Source: a virus
Reading direction: 5' to 3' (one strand)
UHGV virus genome: UHGV-0179878
Length of the DNA: 43,949 nucleotides
Shown here: positions 1,071-43,949 of the stretch, piece by piece
How positions within the stretch are numbered: the first letter of the stretch is position 1
How the letters are laid out: every line of letters begins with the position of its first letter
Made by a program: the position numbers and the translations under genes
The notes under the pieces: generated by a model
Seen by the model: the letters and a program-made list of their open reading frames with translations, nothing else
Told to the model about the DNA's origin: nothing
The model's database searches: none

Positions 1071-2053
1071 CGTTTGTATTTAACTTAACGCCTTTCCCCG
1101 CATTAATTTCTTAATACGCTTGTGTAACGTTAAATTGCTCTATAAAAAGAGCCTCATGCTTTCACATGAGACTAGACTATATCTTAATATTCATTTTTAG
1201 CTTTTTTATAAGCTAAGTGTGCTTCTTCTGCAGTTTCATAAACACCTAAGTATATAAATTTCTTGTTTTTGTAAAGCTGCGCTTGATATTTGTTTAGATG
1301 TGGTTTGTAAGTTACTCCTGTATATCCTGTCTTATTATGATATTTTCGTCGATTGTTTGCATTTTCTTCATGACTAACCCATCTGCAATTTGATGGTTTA
1401 TAATCGTCATCGTTGTTAATTCTGTCTAATTCAGCACCTTCGAATGGTACATCCCCCATATCTTTGTAGAATTGCATAAAGTCATCTTTCCACTCATCAC
1501 AAACCTTTATACCTCTACCGCCATATGCGCTGTAAAAATCATAGTTAGAGTTGTAACATCGTTGCTTCATACCTTTCCATTTATTATAAATTAAAGTTCC
1601 AGTCATACCATGTTTTTTAGAATGACTAACTTTATTCAAACAACCACAACTTTTAGAATAACCATTTTTCACTTCGGTACCAATCATTATTTTTTCATTA
1701 CCGCATCTCGTACAGTAACATTTATATAGTTTCTTTTTATGTTTATTTCTGCCATAAAACTCTAGAACTTTAAGATAATTAAACTGCATTCCTACAATGT
1801 CCATTTGACCGCTCCTTATCAATCGTCAAATACATTGTATCACACATGAATATTTAATGCACTGCCTATCAATTGATAGTACATAGTCGTTGAAGCTTCC
1901 TCTACTATTACCATAGAGGCTTGCCTGCTGATTGCCCAATCCTTAATATTTTTTAACTTTCACGCTTACCGTTACCAGTTACGTTGTAGTTATTAAGGTT
2001 CTAAGGGTGTCCCAGCAATTCACATTATTTTTTTACATGGAACCCATTAATTA
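1071..2053 (-). mobile_element. Group I intron (983 nt) interrupting the CHAP domain, carrying an HNH homing endonuclease ORF.
   Basis: Exon 1 ends ...DVDGYYGA then TAA; exon 2 resumes QCWDL. The joined sequence matches the contiguous CHAP motif DxDGYY(G/H)AQC(W/Q)DL. The 5' exon ends in U and the exon end GGAGCU can pair with the intron sequence GGUUCC about 10 nt in, giving P1 with a U.G wobble at the splice site. The intron's last nucleotide is G. A free-standing HNH ORF sits inside. Confidence 0.7.
1184..1822 (-). CDS. Intron-encoded HNH homing endonuclease (HNH_3 motif plus C-terminal AP2 DNA-binding domain).
   Basis: 212 aa. HNH_3-like motif ...ELDRINNDDDYKPSNCRWVSHEENANN. AP2-like segment TGYTGVTYKPHLNKYQAQLYKNKKFIYLGVYETAEEAHLAYKKA. 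Lies wholly within the intron between the two hydrolase exons. Confidence 0.75.
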   Translation of the reverse strand: MIRSGQMDIVGMQFNYLKVLEFYGRNKHKKKLYKCYCTRCGNEKIMIGTEVKNGYSKSCGCLNKVSHSKKHGMTGTLIYNKWKGMKQRCYNSNYDFYSAYGGRGIKVCDEWKDDFMQFYKDMGDVPFEGAELDRINNDDDYKPSNCRWVSHEENANNRRKYHNKTGYTGVTYKPHLNKYQAQLYKNKKFIYLGVYETAEEAHLAYKKAKNEY

Positions 2054-2211: not shown

Positions 2212-2658
2212 TTAGTTTCCAAATAGCAAAGGGGCAATTACTTTACTTAGTGTTTCTAATAGTGCGAATGCACCTACAAGTATAGCGCCTAAAGTTTTAT
2301 TAGATAATTTCCTTTCTTCCAATATAAATTGCTTATCTTCAATCTTGCTATCTAATGTTTTTCTGATATCCCTTACTTCTTCGTTAACTTCTTCAAAACG
2401 CCTATTTGTATTAGAATTTGATTGCCTCAACTCTTTCACAAGTCCTTCTATGCTATTCGCCATTCTATCCGTATTTTTTTCAGTGTTAGCAGATGTACCT
2501 TTTAATTCTGTAATAACTTGTATCGTTTCCGTATATCTATCGTCATGTTTTTCATCAACTTTGTATAACTTTTCAGTCGTTTTATCTATATTAGTTTCGG
2601 CTTTATCCATACGTTTTTCTAAGCTAGTAATTCTTTGTTCTTCTATTGTTTTTTGCAT
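2212..2658 (-). CDS. XhlA-like coiled-coil protein with a C-terminal transmembrane segment.
   Basis: 148 aa. Long coiled coil, then hydrophobic tail LGAILVGAFALLETLSKVIAPLLFGN. Sits next to the hydrolase gene as xhlA does in PBSX. Confidence 0.45.
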   Translation of the reverse strand: MQKTIEEQRITSLEKRMDKAETNIDKTTEKLYKVDEKHDDRYTETIQVITELKGTSANTEKNTDRMANSIEGLVKELRQSNSNTNRRFEEVNEEVRDIRKTLDSKIEDKQFILEERKLSNKTLGAILVGAFALLETLSKVIAPLLFGN

Positions 2659-3086
2659 AAAATCAAAACTCCAATTGCAACCAAGATGATTTGTATGATA
2701 CCAACACTCAAATTAATGTAATAGGTCGTGAACATCTCTGCACCACTTACTGACAATAAACCGAAAAGTATATGGATGAAACCACTTAAACTATTACCTA
2801 AAACGATGAATATAGCATATGCTTTACCATCTAAGAACATCGCTGCAATAAGAATGAATGAACCTATTAACATAAACCAACCCATAGTCTGAATGTCAAA
2901 ATAAAGACTTATTTTGGTATACAAAGGAGATATTTTTTCTAGTTCATCTACCGTTTTATCAATCCACTCTAAGCTTCTTATTCCACCTGTAACAGCTAAC
3001 AATAAAAGTAAAAGGTTGGACATTAAGTCTGATGTGTTTATTTTCTTCAAGGTTAATACACCTACTTCACTTAAAATAAAAACCAC
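2643..3086 (-). CDS. Multi-pass membrane protein (holin-like, about 4 transmembrane segments).
   Basis: 147 aa with several hydrophobic helices. Overlaps the start of the XhlA-like gene. Function is uncertain because a canonical phi11-type holin exists at 41127..41402. Confidence 0.5.
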   Translation of the reverse strand: MVFILSEVGVLTLKKINTSDLMSNLLLLLLAVTGGIRSLEWIDKTVDELEKISPLYTKISLYFDIQTMGWFMLIGSFILIAAMFLDGKAYAIFIVLGNSLSGFIHILFGLLSVSGAEMFTTYYINLSVGIIQIILVAIGVLILCKKQ

Positions 3087-3574: not shown

Positions 3575-5107
3575 TCACTCCGTCCATTCATATTGACCGT
3601 AAATATAATCTGTATCAGTCCACGCTGATGGATCTACAGTAGCGTCAAAATTCACTGTTCCTGATGTGTTCAACGAAATACGTCCGCTGTTTTTGTTTCT
3701 AGGTGCACTTATTGAGAAAAACATTAAGTTTTTGACGAATTCTTTAGGTAAAAGTGCAATAGTCTGTCCATGTTTGATAGTTGTAGCATTAATGCGTAAC
3801 ATTTTCTTAGTAACTCCATTCTGTGTGATTGTTCTGTACGCACTAGTGAAGCCACCCTTAGTAACTAAGTCGTTATGAGGTGATGCACTGTTCACTAGTT
3901 GTAAATCAATCCAACCAGTATCTACAACATCTGAACCGACACGTTCCCAACCACTCCAACTCTTATAAAATCTTTTTTGGTAGATTACAGTTGAATTGTA
4001 AGGTTGGTATTGTATTAGAACTGCATCTCCATTTCTTTTATACTTTGTTAACCACCCATTATTATTTGTTCCAGTTGGGTTGTTCAAAGTAAGAACAACA
4101 TATCTAGTTCCTATCGGTAAAGACATTAATTGTTCGTTATTATCGAAATCTATTTGTAGGTTAGCATCATAAAAATTAGTACCATCATCATTTGTTAATT
4201 TAAATTTTTGCCAATCCTTTTCTGTAAACTTACTTTCTACATATTCAGGAGTAGTAAAGCCATCTCTTTCAAGGGTTTCATTAAATGTTTGTAGCTTTTC
4301 ATCAATTGTTGTGTTAGCTTGATTAACATTTGAATTAAAAGCGTCCACATTGCTATCATAAATTTTTTGGAATGTATCTGAAGCTAAATCATAATCCGTC
4401 TTGATAGCGTCACGTTTAGCATCTATTTGTCTTAACGCTTCTTCTCTCTCTAAGTCAATGCTTTGGTTAGACGACAATAATGCGTCTGTAATTGAAACAA
4501 TAGCATCTGCTTGAGCCTTGTTTATTTTAATGAGGTATTCTTCAGCTGTTTGCTTAATAGATTCAATCAACGTTTGTGTATCGCCTATATCTTGCTTAAG
4601 TTGTTGCACTTTCTTTTCTAATTCCGAACGCAAATCATCAAACATGCGAATATAAGATACTTTAATGTCGCTTTCTATTTGATTGATAAGACTGTCGCGT
4701 ACCGTGAATTTAAAAGTACCTAACACAACAGTGTCGTCTTTCCCTACGTTATTCACATCATTGAGTGATAAGTAAATTTCACCCAACACTTCAGAATCGA
4801 CAACATTTTTCAGAAACCATTGAGGTACCGTAATGCCTATTAATCCTTTCATTGGATCAATGAACTCTACGTCTAATACACCCGATGTACTAGGTCGTTT
4901 TTCTTCTGTTCCGTTCGCAGCTTTAAAGAAAGCATAACCTTTAACGTTCTTATCGCTGATTAACAAAGGTTTGTTGTCTTTTTGTACTACAAATTGAAAT
5001 TTAGCAGTATTTTTATCGAGATTATAAAAACCGATACCTCTATTAGATATCGGTTGTAAATATGGTTCTTCATTTAAATCAAGTTTACCTACTTTTTCTA
5101 ATTCCAT
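3575..5107 (-). CDS. Baseplate upper protein (BppU-family N-terminus) / receptor-binding tail protein.
   Basis: 510 aa. N-terminal MELEKVGKLDLNEEPYLQPISNRGIGFYNLDK... is typical of the siphovirus BppU N-domain. Start overlaps the upstream stop (TAATG). Located after Tal and the fibre genes. Confidence 0.6.
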   Translation of the reverse strand: MELEKVGKLDLNEEPYLQPISNRGIGFYNLDKNTAKFQFVVQKDNKPLLISDKNVKGYAFFKAANGTEEKRPSTSGVLDVEFIDPMKGLIGITVPQWFLKNVVDSEVLGEIYLSLNDVNNVGKDDTVVLGTFKFTVRDSLINQIESDIKVSYIRMFDDLRSELEKKVQQLKQDIGDTQTLIESIKQTAEEYLIKINKAQADAIVSITDALLSSNQSIDLEREEALRQIDAKRDAIKTDYDLASDTFQKIYDSNVDAFNSNVNQANTTIDEKLQTFNETLERDGFTTPEYVESKFTEKDWQKFKLTNDDGTNFYDANLQIDFDNNEQLMSLPIGTRYVVLTLNNPTGTNNNGWLTKYKRNGDAVLIQYQPYNSTVIYQKRFYKSWSGWERVGSDVVDTGWIDLQLVNSASPHNDLVTKGGFTSAYRTITQNGVTKKMLRINATTIKHGQTIALLPKEFVKNLMFFSISAPRNKNSGRISLNTSGTVNFDATVDPSAWTDTDYIYGQYEWTE

Positions 5108-7773
5108 TATTTAGCACCCCACAATACTAATGCTATTGCACAGCCACGTTCTTCAGTGTATTCAGAAGTTATCTTCATGACTCTGCCTTTACCATTCACA
5201 TTATCTTTATATCCTACACCTGCTCTACCGTTGATATAGTCGCCTGGTATAACGTCTTTCTCAATGTTTGTGTAGATTTGACCTAATAATCCGACTACAT
5301 TCCATTCAGGTCTTTCTGAACGTGATTGATAATCGATTTTGTCGTTATATTCAGGGTTTTCTACTGGTATGTCACGCCATTCGAAAGAAACGTTGCCCTC
5401 ATCATCTACAAATTCAACTTGTTTTCTATTCGTGATAGTCACACCATATTCGTTTTTAAGAAATCTATCTTTGTGGTGGAACGTTTTTTCGTTCGCTACC
5501 AACGCGGCAGTTCCAGATATAACGCCAATTGGTGTGTCATTAGGTTGCGCTTTTCTTATCTTATCGCCGTCTAATGTAACGATAGTTCCTAAATCGATTG
5601 CTAATCCATTTTGTGACTCAAATAACTCTGCGATATCGGCACTATCTTGTTTAAGTTGACCGGCTAAAGTTAAGTTTCCTGAATAAGTGCTTAAATCAAA
5701 TTTAATGTTAGATGTAGAAGCATTACCACTAGAACCATATCCAGCGACAACATGATAGTTACCAGGTGACTTAACACGATTACTATTCATAATCAGTTGT
5801 GTATGGCCTTTTTTATCAGTTTCAGAATTAAGTGAATTGATAATACCGCTACGTGAACCATAAGATTTGGAGTTAGCACCAGAACCTAATACAAAGCTAC
5901 GATTACTGTATGCTTTCGAACCACCTGTAGATGCAATAACTGCACTAGCGTTTGCTACACCAGCACTTCCTGTAGACGCTATACTAGCGCCGCCTTTTCC
6001 TACTGTAGGTGGTGTGTCGTACTTTTCTCCTGCTATCCATGCAGAAGTTGAATAATTATCAGCTGTGACGCCGCTAATCATAGCGTGGTTATTTGTCAAA
6101 CGTAATCCTATACCTGAACCATTGCCGTGTAAGTTACAATTAGTTATTTTAGTGTCGTATATTTTACTTCCAACACCGATACCGATATTGTTAGATGAAT
6201 TCCAAATATTTATGTTATTTAGTGATACTCTAGACGGTCTATTATCTCCGCCAAATAATCTAATATCTACTTCTGCATTTTTAAAGTTACGCACATTAAT
6301 ATTATTAAGCGAGATGTTTTCGGACATGAATTGGATGGCTATTGCTGGTTGTTTTTTATCTAGTTTTCCACCTTCTAATTTTCCGAAATCACTATCACCT
6401 ATAGCTGTAAAGTTATTTACAGAAACATTTCTATAAGCACTGATTAATAATGCTCTAGGTGTTGAGCCTGGATACACACCATTGTATTTAGGGTTTAAAG
6501 CTAAGCAATTATTTAGCACCACGTCATAAGCAGTCAAACTTTTATTGTCCGTTTTAGCTCTATGATGACCGATGTGTCGAATGTTGTAAGCTCTTGTATC
6601 TTCGATTGATACGTGACCGTTAACGAACACACCACTTGCAGCACTTGCATTACTGTGTGCTTTGATTTCTAAACCACCGAAGTTACCTTTGGTTCTGTTG
6701 TTTGATAAGAACACATATTGTGAGCCATCGTCAATTTCTACACCGTTGTTATTACTTCCACCTGTTGGTGTATGTGCATAACAATTAGAAATTGTAATGT
6801 AACGAGAGTGATGGGTAGTGATACCATCATCTCCGCAACCATATACCTCACAATTATCAATATGAATATGCTTACTTTCTAATGCGTAAGGCACTCTGTT
6901 TCCATCGCCTTCGTAGTAATAATTGTCATTTGCATATGTTACATCGATACAGTGTAGTAAAGCGTCATATGATTTAACGTTATAGATATATCCATTAGTT
7001 ACACCCGCAAATCTAATGTTAGATGAACGAGAACCACCGGTAGCTTTAAGTGTTTTATTTTGTCTAAACTTATTCCCGTTGAACGAAAAACTTTCTAATG
7101 AAATGTTTTCAGCTCCACCACTCATTTTTAAGTTAGTGATACCAATATTTTCTGCAGGTGTTTCGTCCATAAACTTAATTGTAGTAATGTCTTTACCTTG
7201 TCCTACCAAACGAGAGTTGTTAGGCATTTTAATACCTGTTGTAAGGTAAGTACCACCACTCATAGTTACCTGTACATTGCCGTTACCTAATGCGTCTTGG
7301 AAAGCTTTCGTACTGTCCTTTTGACCTGTAGGATCTCCGCCAAAGTCATCAACGTTAACAATACGTTGTATTTTCTTAGTTAAGTCGGCTCTTAGTTCTT
7401 CTCTAGCGTTACTTTCTCTTAAAAAGTCGTGATATAGACGTTGGTGTAAAGAATCGAAACTTTGAGCGTCCATTGATGTGTGACTAGCTTTTAATTCGTT
7501 ATTGCCATCACCGTTATGACCTAACACAAGATGTTCAATAAGTTCATCTTGATAATTTTCATGATTAGATAATACGACATCTTTACCTTTTGTAGTTTTG
7601 TGTTTGATTTGATCAGTTGTATGCGCATTTTTTTGAGTGGTTAAATGCTCGTTAAAGCTATCATCACTTTTATTAGTCCAGTATTTTATTTGTTCGAAGT
7701 TATTCTCAAGTTGACTTACAAACTTTTGACTAAAGTACGAGTGAAGTTTCGTAATTAAGTTATCTAATTTCAA
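5107..7773 (-). CDS. Tail fibre / depolymerase-like protein with a pectate-lyase-3 right-handed beta-helix domain.
   Basis: 888 aa. Motif ...VNVDDFGGDPTGQKDSTKAFQDALGNGNVQVTMSGGTYL... matches the Pectate_lyase_3 N-cap. Long run of NxxG/beta-helix-like repeats. Gly/Ser-rich segment near the C-terminus. Confidence 0.65.
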   Translation of the reverse strand: MKLDNLITKLHSYFSQKFVSQLENNFEQIKYWTNKSDDSFNEHLTTQKNAHTTDQIKHKTTKGKDVVLSNHENYQDELIEHLVLGHNGDGNNELKASHTSMDAQSFDSLHQRLYHDFLRESNAREELRADLTKKIQRIVNVDDFGGDPTGQKDSTKAFQDALGNGNVQVTMSGGTYLTTGIKMPNNSRLVGQGKDITTIKFMDETPAENIGITNLKMSGGAENISLESFSFNGNKFRQNKTLKATGGSRSSNIRFAGVTNGYIYNVKSYDALLHCIDVTYANDNYYYEGDGNRVPYALESKHIHIDNCEVYGCGDDGITTHHSRYITISNCYAHTPTGGSNNNGVEIDDGSQYVFLSNNRTKGNFGGLEIKAHSNASAASGVFVNGHVSIEDTRAYNIRHIGHHRAKTDNKSLTAYDVVLNNCLALNPKYNGVYPGSTPRALLISAYRNVSVNNFTAIGDSDFGKLEGGKLDKKQPAIAIQFMSENISLNNINVRNFKNAEVDIRLFGGDNRPSRVSLNNINIWNSSNNIGIGVGSKIYDTKITNCNLHGNGSGIGLRLTNNHAMISGVTADNYSTSAWIAGEKYDTPPTVGKGGASIASTGSAGVANASAVIASTGGSKAYSNRSFVLGSGANSKSYGSRSGIINSLNSETDKKGHTQLIMNSNRVKSPGNYHVVAGYGSSGNASTSNIKFDLSTYSGNLTLAGQLKQDSADIAELFESQNGLAIDLGTIVTLDGDKIRKAQPNDTPIGVISGTAALVANEKTFHHKDRFLKNEYGVTITNRKQVEFVDDEGNVSFEWRDIPVENPEYNDKIDYQSRSERPEWNVVGLLGQIYTNIEKDVIPGDYINGRAGVGYKDNVNGKGRVMKITSEYTEERGCAIALVLWGAK

Positions 7774-7787
7774 ATTTTTTGACCTCC

Positions 7788-9644
7788 TTAGCCATAAAAA
7801 CCATAAAAGTTTTTAATCAATTCGTACATAATGACCTCGTGCCCTTTTTCATTAGGGTGTACCCCGTCAGGCATACTCGATTTTCTGTACGAAGGTATAT
7901 TGGGTTTGAATTGTGTTGAATGATAAGCGTCATAAACAGGTATATCCAGTTCGTTACAAGCGTCTATTTGAACATCTACATAATCAGCTAAAGTGTGACC
8001 TAAATCGTTCTTAGTAGTGTCTTTTCTTACGGTTTTGCCGTCTTTTATATAACATTGTTTAGTAGGTGTCATAACAATTATTTTAGAGTTAGGGTTATTA
8101 CTCTTGATTTTAGTGATAGCACTATAAAAGGCACCGTAAAACGTTTTAGTATCCGTTTTATCAGTGCCTATATTAATATCATTAGTCCAATCATCATCTG
8201 TACCTTGCACAATGATTAAATCAGATTTAATTTTGGTCGCTTGTTCATAAATGCTATTATCTTTGTTTGTGCTCATTGTCGCACCACTAACAGCTAAGTT
8301 TGTTGATTTAGCCTTTATCTTCTTAGCTAACATTTGAGTAAAGTTAGTTTTAGCACCAGTACCTTTAGCGACAGAATCTCCAATAGTACCTATTGTTTTA
8401 ACTTTCCTAATCTTAGACTTAGGTGTAAAGTCGTGAACAATAGTACCGTTTGCAGTTGTAACACTCTTAGCATGCGCGCTTTCTAATCTTCTTTTTATTT
8501 CATCGGTTTTCTTCTGCAAATCTTGTGCAGTCTTAGTATTTGCGTTGTTTTGAGCTTGAATCATCCTTAAGTCTTTAGCTGGATCAGATTTGTTAGACTT
8601 AATAGCTTTAACATAATTTGCAGCAGTGTTTACTGCTTTCATGTATCTATCTTGTAATCTAAATTCCCCAAGCACTACGTCTTGTTTGATAATCTTGTTG
8701 TTAATATCTCGTTGCGTAGTGATTTCGATAATTCTAACAAACTCATTTAAACCTATTAAATCATCAATCACATTCACAATATCCCCAACTCTAGGTACTG
8801 CTTCTTTAAAATGTTTTTGCAAAGAAATAAAATCTAGTGTTACAGACGTTTTTAAACTTTCTTGTATAACTAACTCCATAGCTTTTTTGAGTGTATCCCC
8901 TTTAGTTATGCGTCCATCTACAACAGGTGGTGCATGGCGTTTGCCTATTAAGTCAGCTAAGGGGTGTGTATACTCATATTGCAAGCTGGCTTCGTTGAAA
9001 GTTTGTTGCTCATCAAAGCCACCATAACCTCTGATGTATGTGTAACACTTAGAAGCATCTTCTTGGACTTTTACATTATTAGCATTGACACCTGCTTTAA
9101 TGTAATAGTTAGCTTTTCTTTGAACAATATCATATAAATGAAATGTCTTTGTTTTGGCGTTATATTCATATTCTAAGTTATATCTTTCCAAACCTTTTTT
9201 GAATAATTCTAAATTGGTATCGTGGTTACCTAGATTTTCAAATTTGGAAGATGAAACCTTAGCGTGTAATTCATACTTATAACCGGTATCTTTAAAAACT
9301 AAATCGAAGTAGCTTTTTCCTGTAAAACTACCGTTATATACTTCGTATACTCTTAAATTGTTTAGATCATCTAATTCGACAGGACGCGCTTTGATTGTTA
9401 ACTTTTCCTTTTGACCTACAGTTGTTTTGTCTAACATAACGATACGGTATTCGTTTAGGTCATCAGCACCACCAACACCTGTAATCGTCCACATTTTAGT
9501 AATAGCCCCTATAGCGTCAAATGTAGCTTTGTTTTCTACCATTTCTATTTCTAAGGAGCCATCTTCATTTAATTTCTCGTTTAATTTTGTTTCTACAGGT
9601 AGGGATTGCCCAATGCCCTGTAACGTTTTTAATAATATTGGCAA
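7788..9644 (-). CDS. Tail-associated lysin (Tal): tail endopeptidase N-domain plus C-terminal SGNH/GDSL hydrolase.
   Basis: 618 aa. N-terminal Tal-like region directly downstream of Dit. C-terminal IGTIGDSVAKGTG...IVQGTDDDW...DGVHPNEKGHEVIMYEL carries SGNH blocks I, III and V. Confidence 0.7.
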   Translation of the reverse strand: MPILLKTLQGIGQSLPVETKLNEKLNEDGSLEIEMVENKATFDAIGAITKMWTITGVGGADDLNEYRIVMLDKTTVGQKEKLTIKARPVELDDLNNLRVYEVYNGSFTGKSYFDLVFKDTGYKYELHAKVSSSKFENLGNHDTNLELFKKGLERYNLEYEYNAKTKTFHLYDIVQRKANYYIKAGVNANNVKVQEDASKCYTYIRGYGGFDEQQTFNEASLQYEYTHPLADLIGKRHAPPVVDGRITKGDTLKKAMELVIQESLKTSVTLDFISLQKHFKEAVPRVGDIVNVIDDLIGLNEFVRIIEITTQRDINNKIIKQDVVLGEFRLQDRYMKAVNTAANYVKAIKSNKSDPAKDLRMIQAQNNANTKTAQDLQKKTDEIKRRLESAHAKSVTTANGTIVHDFTPKSKIRKVKTIGTIGDSVAKGTGAKTNFTQMLAKKIKAKSTNLAVSGATMSTNKDNSIYEQATKIKSDLIIVQGTDDDWTNDINIGTDKTDTKTFYGAFYSAITKIKSNNPNSKIIVMTPTKQCYIKDGKTVRKDTTKNDLGHTLADYVDVQIDACNELDIPVYDAYHSTQFKPNIPSYRKSSMPDGVHPNEKGHEVIMYELIKNFYGFYG

Positions 9645-9657
9645 TTAAGCAACCTCC

Positions 9658-10596
9658 TTACAAGTAATATCTTTTGTGTTTAAACGTGATTTTTTGAAGT
9701 TTCTTAGTAGTATGGAAAGTATTCCAACCAGGCATTAACACAGGTTGTTGTTTCGTCTTATTGTAATCATCAATGCGTAAGTTATTACGATATACATGGA
9801 TGCCGTCAAATTTGATAACATCACCGGCTCTCAATTCTAATCCACTTATTTTCATAATGTCACTATGTGTCATATAGAAGTTAAAACCATCGCTATCATT
9901 TTTACTGACATTTTCTCCAAGTGTCATTTCTACAACACTATCTTGGTTGAATTGGTTAATTTCAGCTGTACCACCGTAATATACATCGCCCACTTTAGTG
10001 TCATAGAATGTGTATCTACGTTCTTTATGAGATGTGTTGAACGGGTTTTTGTCTGGAATACCCCATTTATTCAAATTACCACTCTCTTTTTCTAAATCTG
10101 TACTATACCCAATACTCTCAAAGTATGGTAATTCAATCGTTTCGAAATCTAGTGTGAATTCACCTGACGTTTTAGTAGTATCGAATGACACTTCGTTAAC
10201 TAAGCCAACAAGTATCTGCCTGCCGTCAACATATTCTAGTTCAAAAGATTGTTCCTTAGGTTCGAATATATTCTCGAATTTAATTTCACTTTCAGACGCT
10301 GCTAATTCTCTAAGATAAAAATGACCTCTTAGCATAGCTTGTATATTCGCTTTTAAATGAGAAGCATAAGCTATCTTTTCTACATCGTACCTAACCGTCA
10401 TAGATATACTTTTCTTTTCTTCTTTAGTAGCATTATGAAATCTACCGTTAACACGATCGATTTCATCAAACTTTCGGTCATAGCCTGCACCTTTAACATC
10501 GTAAGAAACAACTCTCAACGCAGTACCAGTAAAGCGATTGTTACTAATACGCAAACGTTCTTTATTTTTGTATACCTCAACATCATGTAATATCAA
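9658..10596 (-). CDS. Distal tail protein (Dit, siphovirus tail family).
   Basis: 312 aa, immediately downstream of the tape measure gene and upstream of Tal. Identified from this conserved position in the siphovirus tail gene order. Confidence 0.65.
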   Translation of the reverse strand: MILHDVEVYKNKERLRISNNRFTGTALRVVSYDVKGAGYDRKFDEIDRVNGRFHNATKEEKKSISMTVRYDVEKIAYASHLKANIQAMLRGHFYLRELAASESEIKFENIFEPKEQSFELEYVDGRQILVGLVNEVSFDTTKTSGEFTLDFETIELPYFESIGYSTDLEKESGNLNKWGIPDKNPFNTSHKERRYTFYDTKVGDVYYGGTAEINQFNQDSVVEMTLGENVSKNDSDGFNFYMTHSDIMKISGLELRAGDVIKFDGIHVYRNNLRIDDYNKTKQQPVLMPGWNTFHTTKKLQKITFKHKRYYL

Positions 10597-10611: not shown

Positions 10612-13600
10612 TTAAAATAATCCGAAACTTGCGTCTTTTGAGTTGGAATCTTCAATGTAAGATTTAATAGCCGGTATATCTGACTCATTGCGAACAGTCA
10701 CGTTAACGATAGGTTTGTTGTTCTCTTGCATGCTATGACGTACGTCTTTGCTCATATGAGCGTCGAAAGAGCCCCCTAAACCAGCCAATCCTTCTTCTAA
10801 AAAGTCTGGTTTTAAGTCTGCATTGAAGGCATCCATAACTTTTAATGCCGCTAATTTACTTTCTCTTGCAGCTTTTCCTGCATATTCAGAGATACCCATA
10901 CCTAATCCAGTCATACTATCATTACCTAGTTGTATGAACTTACGAGAAGGAGAATGACTATCTAAAGCGCTTTTCGCAGCGTTCAATGCACCTTTTGCAG
11001 CGTTCCATGCAGCTGCTGCTAAATCTTTAGCTTTTTGAACGATACCTCTTATCATTCCAGCTATCATATCAACGCCTACTTGATAGAAATGACCAATAAA
11101 ACTGCGTGCTCGATTTAATGCGTTTCTCATGCCATTTCCAACAGCGCCGACCACTCTGAAGAAACCACTAACTACTGCTTGTAAAAATCTACTCATTGCA
11201 GAAATGATGCTTGAAACCCATTGTGCACCACCAGAAATAATACGACTGAGCGCTTGCATCATTTTTTGAGCAACTGTTGAAACTACACGTGAAAACCAAC
11301 TTGCTACAGTATTCCAAATTCTAGTAACTGCGCCTGAAATCGCAGACCAAATTTGGTTCCAACTTGTAATATTAGTACCAAGTATTCTGTTTAAAACGTT
11401 GAATATGAAGTTAGAAATCTGGTTCCAAATTGATACTAACGTATTCCAAATCGTAGTCATTACATTAGAAATCGTAGTTTGTAAAGTTAGCCAAGCACCA
11501 GAAAAATCTCCGGTAAGGAGCTGTATTAATGCAGTAAACAAACCGAAAATCAATTGCGTAGCAGCTTGTAGTATTCCACCTATCGCAGTGAATACTACTG
11601 AAATCACAGTCCAAAGAGATTGGAAAGCAGTTACTAAACCATTGATAAGGCTGATGAATAAGAAGCCGAGAACTTGGTTTGCAACTTGCCCTAACATTTG
11701 TAAGATAGGGATAATTGGTTGTAATGTTTGTTCGATAGACGCTCTGAACTGATTGAACCAGTTAATCACTGATTTTACAGCGTTCATTATCGTATCTTTA
11801 ATTGTGTTCCAAGCTTCAATACAAGTTTTTCTGAAATTCTCATTTGTTTTCCACAACCAAACAATAATACCTATTAAAGCAACGATAACGCCTATGATAG
11901 CCAATACAGGCCATGAAATCGCACCTATAGCTACACCTAACGCTTGGAATGCACCACTTAACATAGGTAAGATACGCATAATTGTACTAATAGGGCTCAT
12001 AAGGAGCCTGAAAGCTATTTTTACTAAGTTTAATGCACTTCTAAGTATTTGAGTGTTTCTAGCAAAAGCTAACATTTTACCGATAGCTTGGATTAAACCT
12101 ACACCGAACACATTAGATAGCATTGTACTTACTGCGATGATTGGTGCTAGTAAAGCCCACAACATACCACCGAGTATCATACCTATACCAACCATTCGAG
12201 CTATAGCTGGGTGTGTTTCAAACAATTTAGCTATGAAACCAGCTAATGCTGTTACTACTTTTAATATCACACTTGCTATTGGTGCCATTGCAGTACCGAA
12301 AGCAACCAATACTCTTACAATATTACCGATTAGATCCATAATGACTGGACCATTCTCTTGTACATATTGAACAAACTTTTTAAACCCTTCAGATTTACCA
12401 ACTTGTTCAGACCATTCTCTAAACTTAGCAGTCATTTTAACTAACCAATCAAAGATATTAGAACTGTTTTGAGCAAATGCTTTCATCAAGTTACCAATAC
12501 CCATGAATACATTGCCGAATATTTGACCTATTTTAGGTAAATTAGTTTTAGTGTATTCAATAAATGATTTAATAGCGTTCTGACCTGCTACACTGTTAGC
12601 CCAGTTTTGGAACTTTTTACCTAGATTATCTAAGCCTTTAGCAGTCCATAAGAATAGTGGACCTAATTGAGTGAATACATTAATAAGTCCGTCACCAAAA
12701 CGTCCTGCAGCACTTAATAATGTGTTGAATGTCTTAACACCTGTTGTATTCATCATGTTAAAAAATTTGCTAGCAGTTTGACTGTTTTGAGCCCATTTTA
12801 AGACACTCTGTGACGCTTGTTCCATTCCTTTAGAGATACCTGCTAAGAATGGTTTCATACGCCCTAAAGCTACGTTAACAGTGTCTAAAGCGTTAGATAG
12901 TGTGTTGAATATCTGCGCTTGATTTTGCTTGATAATGCCTTCCCAAGTTGACTTAACTTGTTCTAAAGACGCTTGATATCTTCTTGTTTGCGCAGTGGCT
13001 TGTAATGTTCCGTCATTCAACATTTTAATTGCACTTACTGCCATAGCGCCAAATGCAAACGCACCACTTGCAGCAATACCAAATGCACCAGCTACACCTA
13101 ATGCACCACCAGCAACTACACCTAATGCGTTAGCTACTGCCATGATGGCGGGTACTAAACCAGCTATAATAGGAATAAGACCTTGAAAACTAGCGATTAG
13201 CACACCTTTGATTTGTTGTCCAAACACAGTGCCAAATGTACGAATACGAGTAGCTAATCTATCCATTTTGTCGCCGTATTCATCTAAAGACTGACTTAAA
13301 GCTCTAGTTAATACTTGAGCTCTTGTCATCCCCCTTGTATCAAAGTTAACTTTTACCGTTTTATCATGTAAGGTTGCCAACATAGCCTTAGCACCTAATA
13401 CTGAACGTTTTAAGGGATTGTTATTCCCTTTTATGTCTACTTCTTTATCTCTTAATTGCTGTAATTTCTCTTTAACTACTGCAATTGCTCGTTTGATAGG
13501 GTTATTGTTACCGTCTATTTCAACGGTGTGTCCACGCCAACGTTGAGCCATTGCTTTTGCAGTGTTTAAGGCTCGTTTAAACTTACTAATATTCGCATCG

Positions 13601-13716
13601 ACTTGTGTTTCGATTTCATCGGGTATTTCAGTTTTTGCCATACGTTGAGCTTTTCTGATATTCCGTTGGAAATCTGTAATGATCGCCGATATACGAGCCA
13701 TAAAGTTTTTATTCAT
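10612..13716 (-). CDS. Tail tape measure protein.
   Basis: 1034 aa. Long helical and hydrophobic/Gly-rich central region. Located after the G/GT chaperone pair. Confidence 0.85.
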   Translation of the reverse strand: MNKNFMARISAIITDFQRNIRKAQRMAKTEIPDEIETQVDANISKFKRALNTAKAMAQRWRGHTVEIDGNNNPIKRAIAVVKEKLQQLRDKEVDIKGNNNPLKRSVLGAKAMLATLHDKTVKVNFDTRGMTRAQVLTRALSQSLDEYGDKMDRLATRIRTFGTVFGQQIKGVLIASFQGLIPIIAGLVPAIMAVANALGVVAGGALGVAGAFGIAASGAFAFGAMAVSAIKMLNDGTLQATAQTRRYQASLEQVKSTWEGIIKQNQAQIFNTLSNALDTVNVALGRMKPFLAGISKGMEQASQSVLKWAQNSQTASKFFNMMNTTGVKTFNTLLSAAGRFGDGLINVFTQLGPLFLWTAKGLDNLGKKFQNWANSVAGQNAIKSFIEYTKTNLPKIGQIFGNVFMGIGNLMKAFAQNSSNIFDWLVKMTAKFREWSEQVGKSEGFKKFVQYVQENGPVIMDLIGNIVRVLVAFGTAMAPIASVILKVVTALAGFIAKLFETHPAIARMVGIGMILGGMLWALLAPIIAVSTMLSNVFGVGLIQAIGKMLAFARNTQILRSALNLVKIAFRLLMSPISTIMRILPMLSGAFQALGVAIGAISWPVLAIIGVIVALIGIIVWLWKTNENFRKTCIEAWNTIKDTIMNAVKSVINWFNQFRASIEQTLQPIIPILQMLGQVANQVLGFLFISLINGLVTAFQSLWTVISVVFTAIGGILQAATQLIFGLFTALIQLLTGDFSGAWLTLQTTISNVMTTIWNTLVSIWNQISNFIFNVLNRILGTNITSWNQIWSAISGAVTRIWNTVASWFSRVVSTVAQKMMQALSRIISGGAQWVSSIISAMSRFLQAVVSGFFRVVGAVGNGMRNALNRARSFIGHFYQVGVDMIAGMIRGIVQKAKDLAAAAWNAAKGALNAAKSALDSHSPSRKFIQLGNDSMTGLGMGISEYAGKAARESKLAALKVMDAFNADLKPDFLEEGLAGLGGSFDAHMSKDVRHSMQENNKPIVNVTVRNESDIPAIKSYIEDSNSKDASFGLF

Positions 13717-41960: not shown

Positions 41961-43169
41961 TTATAAAGAGTATTGACCGTCAAATACAACGTAATCTGTG
42001 TCTGTATAAACGTCATTTTCGTTAGTGTGTATTTCTATATCCCCGTTCACAATAATAACTTTAGGTGGCGTTTTAGCTATCGTAGAAACACCTGTTTTAT
42101 ATACCTTATAATTGTTGTATTTTTGAGGTATGGAAGCGACAACGTTTTTACCATTTATTAGCCCTTTGACACCTAAACGTATATATACAGTTTCAGAACC
42201 TGGTTGACCTTTTATTTTATAAGATGGTGTATATCCGGCTTCAGTATAAGTTTGATATCCGTTTTTTAAAGTTAACGGTAACCAACTAGTATTAGTAGTT
42301 TTAGGTTTCAATTGTTCTAATTGTTCTTGGGTAAAGTCACTATACGTGAAAGACTTTCCGTCTACCCCATCTTTACCAGGAATACCTTGAATACCCTGTT
42401 CGCCTTTTAAATCTGCAAGTTGTTCTGATGTAAAATCTTCATAACGGAACGGCTCTCCTTTAGGACCTTGTAATCCGGTTTCTCCTTTTTCTCCTTGAAT
42501 GCCTTGAGGACCTTGTAAGCCTTGTTCTCCCTTTAAATTAGCGAGTTGCTCTGGCGTGAAATCTTCGTATCGGAAAGGTTCCCCTTTAGGTCCCTGCAGA
42601 CCAATTGAACCTTGAACACCCTGCTCTCCTTTGAATGTATCAGCATTTTCTTCCATATATACTTTCAAATCGTTCTCTAACTTATCTTTGAAATCATCAT
42701 CTAATAATCCTATAGCATTCTCTTTCATAACGTTTCTAACTAAATCTTGTAATGAATCTACATGTACTTCTTTACCAATCGGTCCGGTCATTCCACTGTC
42801 TTTGATGGTGAAATAAAAGTTAGCAACGTGAACACTATCTTTATTATTAGCTAAAAATAACTTTGCATCCATTTTACCGGCATGTTTAATAACGTTGTCA
42901 GACACCTTGTATTGAATAACGCCACCTTCGGGTAAAACAATTTCTATTGGTTCGTTAGTGAATATAGAACCGTCTGAACTAAATAAGTCTAAACGAGGAA
43001 CCATATCAGTTTTATTGAAATCTAATACTTCGTTGTTATCTCTGATAGTGATTCTTATATAAGCTGATCCGTCATCTTCTGTATAAAAATTAGCGCCAAT
43101 AAAACCGTTCTCAGCTGTACTAACGTTAATGTTAGTAGCTACATCTGTAAGTTTTTGTAACATATACAC
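41961..43169 (-). CDS. Tail fibre protein with collagen-like Gly-X-Y repeats.
   Basis: 402 aa. Two near-identical units of about 40 aa, GEQG(L/V)QG(S/P)(I/Q)G(L/I)QG(P/E)KGE(P/T)...FRYEDFT(P/S)EQLA(N/D)LK, reflected as about 120-bp DNA tandem repeats. Confidence 0.75.
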   Translation of the reverse strand: MYMLQKLTDVATNINVSTAENGFIGANFYTEDDGSAYIRITIRDNNEVLDFNKTDMVPRLDLFSSDGSIFTNEPIEIVLPEGGVIQYKVSDNVIKHAGKMDAKLFLANNKDSVHVANFYFTIKDSGMTGPIGKEVHVDSLQDLVRNVMKENAIGLLDDDFKDKLENDLKVYMEENADTFKGEQGVQGSIGLQGPKGEPFRYEDFTPEQLANLKGEQGLQGPQGIQGEKGETGLQGPKGEPFRYEDFTSEQLADLKGEQGIQGIPGKDGVDGKSFTYSDFTQEQLEQLKPKTTNTSWLPLTLKNGYQTYTEAGYTPSYKIKGQPGSETVYIRLGVKGLINGKNVVASIPQKYNNYKVYKTGVSTIAKTPPKVIIVNGDIEIHTNENDVYTDTDYVVFDGQYSL

Positions 43170-43216: not shown

Positions 43217-43949
43217 TTATCTATATTTATCTCTAATGTAATACATACCTTTTAAACCAATTTGTTTATATAAATTATTAATTGTAATAGCTTGATGTTG
43301 AGCCCACTCTATAGCAGTAGCATATTGATGTGTAGCAGGATGTTTAGGGTTCCATCTAATTCTATATAATGTGTTTTGTCCTTTGTTGATGTAGTCTTTT
43401 CTCACGAAACTAGCTCCACCCATAATAGCTTTTGCTGGAGTAGTCCAACCTCTTTTTCTAGCGAATGTCATTGAATAATTAGGGTTGTTATCATATGCAC
43501 CGATACCAAAGTAGTTATAAGCCCCATATCTACCACTAGCGAAGTTACTTCGGCCATATCCACTTTCTAGGAAAGCATGAGCGATTAAATATATCTCGTT
43601 AATATTATTCTTTTTACACCCCTCAGCAAATGCTTTACCTTGACCGGATAGGGTGCCTTTACCTTTAAGTATCTTGTTTAATTTACTTACTGATATACCT
43701 TGATACTTACCTAAATCTAGCATTTGATACCTTTGTACTGAACTATTCCATATAGTGTTAGGGTTCATATACTTACTTGTTTGTGACCTAGAAGCATTTC
43801 CCCAACCCCAACTATAAGATTTTTGAGGCATGCCATGAGCCATTTGTGCATTAAGTGCTTGTTGGAAAGTATATTTACTTTTCTCTACAACTACACGAGG
43901 TTTATTTGAAGTTCTATTTGTCTTTTTGCCTTTTTTGTCTGTTGGTTTA
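43217..43949 (-). CDS. Virion-associated peptidoglycan hydrolase, 3' part: C-terminal GH73/LYZ2 glucosaminidase domain. Its 5' continuation is at 1..1070 of this window.
   Basis: ...IYLIAHAFLESGYGRSNFASGRYGAYNYFGIGAYDNNP... is the mannosyl-glycoprotein endo-beta-N-acetylglucosaminidase signature. The frame is open upstream to the window end and matches the frame leaving position 1. Confidence 0.75.
   Translation of the reverse strand, partial: KPTDKKGKKTNRTSNKPRVVVEKSKYTFQQALNAQMAHGMPQKSYSWGWGNASRSQTSKYMNPNTIWNSSVQRYQMLDLGKYQGISVSKLNKILKGKGTLSGQGKAFAEGCKKNNINEIYLIAHAFLESGYGRSNFASGRYGAYNYFGIGAYDNNPNYSMTFARKRGWTTPAKAIMGGASFVRKDYINKGQNTLYRIRWNPKHPATHQYATAIEWAQHQAITINNLYKQIGLKGMYYIRDKYR

Follow-up and report, generated by a model that had tools for sequence, protein, structure and literature searches.

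Two adjacent tail-tip genes, tal (7788-9644) and rbp (5107-7773), lie on the minus strand of UHGV-0179878, a viral genome sequence of 43,949 nt (the window, in whose numbering all positions are given). Their products are best explained overall as core parts of a host-recognition baseplate, a reading to which we give a probability of about 0.7. The 888-amino-acid (aa) receptor-binding protein (RBP) is, judging from its alignment, a receptor-binding tailspike and effectively the published enzyme Dpo7 of phage phiIPLA7 itself. The 618-aa Tal (tail-associated lysin) is by homology the baseplate hub, orthologous to 80alpha gp59 and phi11 Gp44, and carries at its C terminus, on a linker, a predicted intact SGNH-type serine esterase domain of putative activity. 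Both proteins are already known, Tal as a member of PHROG 663 and the near-identical counterpart of Dpo7 as a member of PHROG 4775. An earlier annotation made from the DNA letters (the original prediction) had placed two genes at these positions, as we confirm, and had read them as a Tal with an SGNH esterase and a pectate-lyase-fold fibre that together attack one surface glycopolymer; the motifs it quoted (GDS, GTDDDW, DGVHPNEKGH and VNVDDFGGDPTGQKDSTKAFQDAL...GGTYL) are all present.

The receptor-binding tailspike

Alignment of RBP with phiIPLA7 gp18 (IPLA7_0018, Dpo7) showed 880 of 888 residues (99%) to be identical in proteins of equal length, and none of the eight substitutions (R448K, S461D, S517I, V569I, D572N, S576P, K655S and M662L) falls on an invariant position. 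Dpo7 also has the same genomic position, after tal and before the gene of a BppU-type fibre, and PHROG 4775 matched RBP over its full length (E = 0). Orthologs in phages E72, 27 and 459 are annotated 'receptor-binding protein', and Dpo7 has been named 'pre-neck appendage protein'. The expectation of a depolymerase-like protein is borne out by this identity and by the homology of the beta-helix to that of phi29 gp12. A right-handed beta-helix was correctly foreseen as well; the term 'fibre' does not fit, as the protein is a baseplate receptor-binding tailspike and not a generic fibre.

From its matches, RBP can be described as a three-module chimera of a siphovirus stem, a phi29-gp12-type beta-helix and a Peptidase_G2 chaperone. 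Residues 4-127 matched the RBPs of 80alpha (gp61; 6v8i_BH, E = 1.5e-7) and phi11 (Gp45-like; 5efv, E = 3.9e-7) as well as Gp17 in 9m7x (E = 2.9e-9), and in tblastn searches aa 6-140 matched the RBP N termini of many S. aureus phietaviruses. Thus, RBP shares a homologous stem and the same gene position with phi11 Gp45 and 80alpha gp61 (5EFV, 6V8I chain BH), whereas their propeller platform and tower are replaced by a gp12-type beta-helix and an intramolecular chaperone domain. Neither the PDB nor the tblastn matches revealed a propeller platform or tower in RBP, or any similarity to the phi11 and 80alpha RBPs beyond aa ~130-140; the published identity of this RBP type to the 80alpha RBP is about 25%. 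The N terminus is not of the podovirus-collar type either: alignments with phi29 and Goe1 begin at aa 115-138, and where gp12 docks on a podovirus collar, the first ~130 aa of RBP form the siphovirus stem. A preprint classifying the RBPs of S. aureus phages (10.1101/2024.03.04.583386) contains nothing on this RBP type.

Downstream of the stem, aa 138-884 aligned with phi29 gp12 (6qz9, 3suc and 3gq7; E = 7.6e-124 to 8.4e-95), and the identity to the phi29 and phi105 proteins is 36%. Related proteins were found in the B. subtilis phages phi105 and Goe1, S. aureus phage 37, large Sextaecvirus phages and Lacachita. The original prediction had assigned a Pectate_lyase_3 cap to the stretch VNVDDFGGDPTGQKDSTKAFQDAL...GGTYL, which lies at aa 139-177. 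However, hmmscan against Pfam-A at E <= 10 gave no match of RBP to Pectate_lyase_3 (PF12708) and returned only Peptidase_G2 and the generic Beta_helix profile (E = 1.9e-8), and we rejected membership of that family; the 'cap' label describes a resemblance.

The C-terminal chaperone, which the original prediction had missed, matched Peptidase_G2 (PF11962, aa 659-884, E = 3.2e-57). In phi29, gp12 cuts off its intramolecular chaperone after trimerisation (reviewed in PMC9863714). Residue 1 of 3gqh, the released C-terminal domain of phi29 gp12, aligned with RBP aa 713, and D713, E716 and E719 of RBP are invariant in an alignment of eight sequences from Staphylococcus and Bacillus phages (35-99% identity to RBP), corresponding to D692, E695 and E698 of phi29. 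Because the start of 3gqh and this invariant cleavage motif coincide, self-cleavage of RBP is predicted between Ala712 and Asp713.

The same eight-sequence alignment bears on whether the beta-helix is catalytic. Invariant columns are packed most densely at aa 301-400, and the invariant residues include D315, D316, H321, N343, E346, D348, D349, E369, K371, H373, H387, D392, R394, R399, H400, H403 and H404. Several of these fall into the motifs GDDGITTHHS (D315, D316, H321), NGxEIDDGS (N343, E346, D348, D349) and GxEIKAH (E369, K371, H373), and D315, D316, H321, E346, D348, D349, E369, K371 and H373 correspond to phi29 D279, D280, H285, E310, D312, D313, E333, K335 and H337. Both the acidic/His cluster and the D-x-x-E motif of the chaperone are therefore common to RBP and phi29 gp12 (3GQ7, 3SUC, 6QZ9), which also share the beta-helix plus Peptidase_G2 architecture. 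A helix devoid of catalytic acidic residues, which the original prediction had counted against itself, is the opposite of what the conservation at aa 315-404 revealed. A purely structural, non-catalytic adhesin that only binds the receptor would resemble the many beta-helix fibres that do no more than bind, and work on Dpo7 has reported no defined chemical product (PMC11335607). However, the dense cluster of Asp, Glu, His, Lys and Arg is invariant down to 35% identity, recombinant Dpo7 disperses biofilm matrix at 0.15 uM and gives halos (PMC4658415, PMC11335607), and the phi29 homolog is an enzyme. We regard the adhesin reading as very improbable.

Substrate of the tailspike

The wall teichoic acid (WTA) of B. 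subtilis is glucosylated, and gp12 prefers glucosylated poly(glycerol-phosphate) (poly(GroP)). The hosts of phi29 and of the window phage both carry poly(GroP) WTA (for S. epidermidis, see PMC11005348), and phi29 gp12 recognises and digests the B. subtilis polymer (reviewed in PMC9863714), WTA hydrolysis being established for gp12 only. The RBPs of phages E72, 27, 459 and 456 are ~99% identical to one another, and these phages lost both binding and plating on S. epidermidis tagE, gtaB and pgcA mutants, which lack the glucose on GroP-WTA (PMC11005348). As such close relatives need glucosylated GroP-WTA to bind, this polymer is the likeliest native substrate of RBP.

Published work on Dpo7 had already supplied the biofilm and halo experiment that the original prediction proposed for the 5107..7773 product (PMC4658415, PMC11335607). 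Dpo7 expressed in E. coli removed >90% of the cells attached in biofilms of S. epidermidis and S. aureus strains that produce polysaccharide, was ineffective on the protein-based biofilm of S. aureus V329, and the plaques of phiIPLA5 and phiIPLA7 have expanding halos (PMC4658415). These observations, together with the name 'EPS depolymerase Dpo7' (EPS, exopolysaccharide), would suit a beta-helix that mainly depolymerises poly-N-acetylglucosamine/polysaccharide intercellular adhesin (PNAG/PIA) and clears the biofilm matrix for access to the cells, with WTA as no more than the binding receptor. In contrast, Dpo7 was equally active on S. aureus SA113 and its ica deletion mutant (PMC11335607), indicating that PNAG is not the sole target. 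In addition, the same beta-helix with its invariant residues occurs in the B. subtilis phages phi29, Goe1 and phi105, and both the WTA digestion by the phi29 homolog and the requirement of the close relatives for glucosylated GroP-WTA speak against an exopolysaccharide as the main target, which we consider unlikely. The authors of the 2024 Dpo7 study named WTA and PNAG/PIA as the most probable targets (PMC11335607), and these are the two candidates that the original prediction had listed and that remain open for Dpo7 (PMC4658415, PMC11335607). With WTA as the preferred native substrate, the anti-biofilm effect of Dpo7 could reflect the stripping of teichoic acid off the matrix or the surface of the cells, an additional activity against PNAG, or a combination of the two.

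The Tal hub and its SGNH domain

Tal is identical to phiIPLA7 gp17 (IPLA7_0017) at 611 of 618 residues, aligned over its full length with 80alpha gp59 (6v8i_AE, E = 5.5e-195) and gave a full-length match to PHROG 663. Its N-terminal part consists of TT1_Tal (PF24650, aa 1-90, E = 1.4e-34) and Prophage_tail (PF06605, aa 95-312, E = 8.7e-24), and tal directly follows dit, as is characteristic of a gp27-like siphovirus hub. The proteins 80alpha gp59 and phi11 Gp44 have the same succession of hub, linker and SGNH domain and the same motifs (GDS, GTDDDW and DG(L/V)HPNE(K/R)GH). Unlike Tal, 80alpha gp59 comes from a phage of S. aureus, has a few short insertions and is partnered by a propeller/tower RBP instead of a beta-helix.

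The esterase domain named in the original prediction was recovered by Lipase_GDSL_2 (E = 2.2e-16) and Lipase_GDSL at aa 418-606, and the region has the alpha/beta/alpha fold of SGNH proteins with its Ser-Asp-His residues in place. The three motifs lie at aa 421-428 (IGDSVAKG), 481-486 (GTDDDW) and 593-602 (DGVHPNEKGH). Block I provides Ser424 (codon 8373-8375), and block V, of the form D-x-x-H, provides Asp593 and His596 (His codon 7857-7859). The oxyanion hole is incomplete in its canonical form: the block II Gly is present (Gly454), and when GTDDDW is aligned with GGVNDF/Y of 7bxd and 3dc7, the block III Asn position is taken by Asp484 (codon 8193-8195). This Asp, which makes the domain 'SGDH' rather than SGNH, is shared by Tal, 80alpha gp59, Andhra gp6 and all 29 aligned homologs and is thus clade-wide. 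No variation was seen at Ser424, the D-D-D triplet, Asp593 or His596 among these homologs (51-96% identity).

Does the domain act as an esterase? A catalytically inactive or weak domain with a binding or structural role would account for the Asp in block III throughout the clade, for the additional loss of the block II Gly in Andhra gp6, and for the fact that more than 10 years of work on phi11 and 80alpha have reported no activity. However, all 29 homologs keep the Ser-Asp-His triad and the motifs around it unchanged, and such strict invariance argues for selection on catalysis; we hold an inactive domain to be improbable. Activity as a lipase or acyl-hydrolase on the membrane or on the glycolipid anchor of lipoteichoic acid at DNA entry, instead of de-esterification of a glycopolymer, would be in keeping with the place of Tal at the very tail tip, where it reaches the membrane before any other part. 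Lipases and lysophospholipases are found among SGNH proteins, several structural neighbours of the domain are annotated as lipases, and the Andhra and 80alpha papers use the term 'hydrolase/lipase'. This alternative appears to us decidedly unlikely, and a putative esterase acting on a wall substituent is the reading that we carry forward.

In S. pseudintermedius prophages (L010 and L011, positions 7001-8044), the SGNH module is a free-standing gene of 347 aa, located between the gene of a short Tal (465 aa) without an esterase and the BppU fibre gene, which indicates that the module has moved between tail proteins. We rejected a shared N-terminal anchor between this 347-aa protein and RBP (BLASTP E = 9.9), and the N-terminal ~100 aa of the 347-aa proteins were not linked to RBP stems by any PDB or PHROG match.

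Assortment of the two modules and a model for the baseplate

The original prediction had both enzymes acting on one surface glycopolymer, a claim that finds no support in co-inheritance. A gp12-like RBP accompanies a Tal without SGNH domain in S. aureus phage 37, a lysozyme/M23 Tal in S. epidermidis phage Lacachita, and a glucosaminidase and short Tal in phi105; conversely, the SGNH Tal of 80alpha occurs with an unrelated propeller/tower RBP. The Tal SGNH and gp12-like modules are mobile and combine freely in related phages, and as they assort independently, joint action on one polymer is unsupported. The two modules meet again in the S. epidermidis podovirus Andhra, where the SGNH domain forms the C-terminal part of gp6 ('RBP anchor; hydrolase', 8EGR chain K), homologous to that of Tal (E = 8.5e-59), and stands beside gp15, a beta-helix RBP related to phi29 gp12. 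In contrast to the window phage, Andhra carries the SGNH domain on a separate anchor protein and not on Tal, and gp6 has Ser for the block II Gly. This recurrence in a second phage infecting the same species is suggestive of cooperation, not proof of it. A pair that strips and cuts teichoic acid or the wall, formed by the atypical 'SGDH' esterase and a tailspike acting as glucosyl-GroP-WTA phosphodiesterase, is a tentative idea with the odds against it; if it held, the group removed by Tal may be a D-alanyl ester of teichoic acid, O-acetyl on peptidoglycan or O-succinyl on PNAG.

The baseplate reading leads to the following model. Tal would form a trimeric hub under the Dit ring, and RBP would be plugged into the baseplate by its phi11/80alpha-type N-terminal stem. 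As the 80alpha baseplate (6v8i) contains 18 RBP and three Tal chains, RBP is probably likewise present as six trimers. The Peptidase_G2 domain would act as an intramolecular chaperone for RBP trimerisation and then remove itself at Ala712|Asp713. Once mounted, the six RBP trimers would bind glucosyl-GroP-WTA and probably hydrolyse it, bringing the hub to the wall and letting the tail tip pass through the layer of teichoic acid. Next, the Tal esterase would remove an ester substituent of the wall, with O-acetyl groups of peptidoglycan or D-alanyl esters of teichoic acid as the most plausible targets, and finally the virion hydrolase Hyd, with its CHAP and glucosaminidase domains, would open the peptidoglycan.

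Several points weigh against this model. The functional, catalytic reading of the aa 315-404 cluster is putative and derives from conservation, a direct WTA-cleavage assay exists neither for Dpo7 nor for any staphylococcal homolog, and the 2024 study of Dpo7 on S. aureus assigned no single substrate (PMC11335607). Recombinant Dpo7 was mainly recovered at ~98 kDa, that is uncleaved, with a minor 32-kDa fragment; self-cleavage may be absent or may need the native context, and the ~98-kDa form can mean either that processing is absent in E. coli or that the tagged construct hindered it. Regarding Tal, the proteins closest in structure to the SGNH domain are uncharacterised, Asp stands in place of the oxyanion-hole Asn of block III, and papers on phi11 Gp44 and 80alpha gp59, which describe this domain there, state explicitly that its activity is not established; esterase activity is not known from any staphylococcal Tal. 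For reference, a phi29-like cleavage of Dpo7 would give products of ~77 and ~20 kDa.

The phage and the surroundings of tal and rbp

Over their full length, positions 5107-9644 are 96-98% identical at the nucleotide level to 25 records of S. epidermidis siphoviruses of the genus Rockefellervirus, among them vB_SepS_27, 459, E72, 456, phiIPLA5, phiIPLA7, CNPH82, CNPx and PH15. The remaining window is a mosaic of this group, with coverage <=77% at ~95% identity. From these matches, we assign the source to a temperate S. epidermidis siphovirus of the genus Rockefellervirus (phiIPLA5/phiIPLA7/CNPH82/E72 group). We also considered phage E72m5 as a host-range mutant in rbp or tal and ruled this out, as it carries a deletion related to phage-inducible chromosomal islands elsewhere in the genome.

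From 1 to ~35 kb of the window, every long open reading frame (ORF) is on the minus strand, forming a siphovirus morphogenesis module, and the order TMP-Dit-Tal-RBP-FibL is common to the window, E72 and 80alpha (Table 1). The two ORFs of tal and rbp are intact, fill 5107-9644 exactly and have the lengths of their annotated orthologs in phiIPLA7 and E72. Each start codon lies 8 nt after a AAGGAGGT Shine-Dalgarno sequence, a strong ribosome-binding site overlapping the upstream gene's stop codon, and the ATG of fibL overlaps the rbp stop codon (TAATG). An NCBIfam search gave no match for any of the three proteins scanned.

Table 1. Features of the tail-tip region, with positions in the 43,949-nt window and the basis of each assignment
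Feature	Positions	Strand	Basis
Tape measure protein (TMP)	10612-13716	-	ORF listing
dit, distal tail protein	9658..10596	-	PHROG 33 'distal tail protein Dit', E = 3.6e-35; annotated Dit in E72
tal, tail-associated lysin / baseplate hub, 618 aa, TTG start	7788..9644	-	ORF; phiIPLA7 IPLA7_0017; 6v8i_AE; PHROG 663
Tal N-terminal hub (aa 1-312), predicted gp27-like trimeric cap below Dit	8709..9644	-	TT1_Tal + Prophage_tail
Tal C-terminal SGNH/GDSL hydrolase domain (aa 421-604)	7833..8384	-	Pfam GDSL families, motifs
rbp, receptor-binding tailspike, 888 aa, TTG start	5107..7773	-	ORF; phiIPLA7 IPLA7_0018 = Dpo7; PHROG 4775
RBP N-terminal anchor/stem (aa 1-130), siphovirus baseplate attachment module	7384..7773	-	PDB and tblastn matches
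RBP right-handed beta-helix body (aa 138-712), phi29 gp12 homolog	5638..7362	-	PDB, Pfam
Putative catalytic cluster of RBP beta-helix (aa 315-404)	6562..6831	-	Invariance in eight-sequence alignment
RBP C-terminal intramolecular chaperone (aa 713-888, 176 aa), Peptidase_G2	5110..5637	-	Pfam, alignment with PDB 3gqh
fibL, BppU-type lower tail fibre, 510 aa	3575..5107	-	Pfam BppU_N, E = 3.6e-9; FibL in E72

The hyd gene of the virion cell-wall hydrolase (minus strand, 1-2161 and 43217-43949) spans the ends of the window, and the window is therefore a circularly permuted complete genome, consistent with the headful packaging reported for the Rockefellervirus group. Its first exon runs from 2161 to 2055 and is followed by a 984-nt insertion (1071-2054); the second exon runs from 1070 to 1 and continues from 43949 to 43217, being cut by the arbitrary window start. 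As in group I introns, the last base of the 5' exon is T and that of the insertion is G, and in relatives the site is either occupied or empty, with a 'noncoding intron' in E72 and an endonuclease ORF in phiIPLA5 and BE28. A scan of the window against Rfam at the gathering threshold gave no match, which leaves the assignment of the hyd intron to a curated group I family unconfirmed. Within the insertion, a 212-aa ORF (1184-1822, minus strand) carries an AP2 DNA-binding domain at its C terminus (Pfam E = 5.9e-8) and looks like an intron-encoded homing endonuclease.

After hyd comes a gene for a 402-aa protein (41961-43169, minus strand) with a BppU_N domain and a collagen-like repeat, at the position of which phiIPLA7 and E72 have a 169-aa FibU. 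It may correspond to the variant accessory fibre set of phages 456 and CNPx, in which fibU is replaced. The stretch from the fibre-assembly gene to hyd holds two small ORFs (2212-3086, minus strand), one encoding a 147-aa predicted multi-pass membrane protein without Pfam match and the other a 148-aa coiled-coil protein with a hydrophobic tail at its C terminus. Genes at this position in relatives are labelled 'holin regulator', DUF2951 or XkdX.

Overall, the original prediction was correct in what it observed and broadly right in its interpretation, but for so well studied a phage group the annotation is an ordinary one. If the strip-and-cut pairing were true, a staphylococcal Tal esterase would for the first time have a defined chemistry, and Dpo7 would be assigned a different substrate. 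Proteins of the Dpo7 type are under development as anti-biofilm agents and as phage adjuvants against staphylococci, and the recognition of a gp12-type body with a siphovirus anchor and a predicted removable chaperone guides the design of constructs (tags, aa 1-712) and the choice of substrates.

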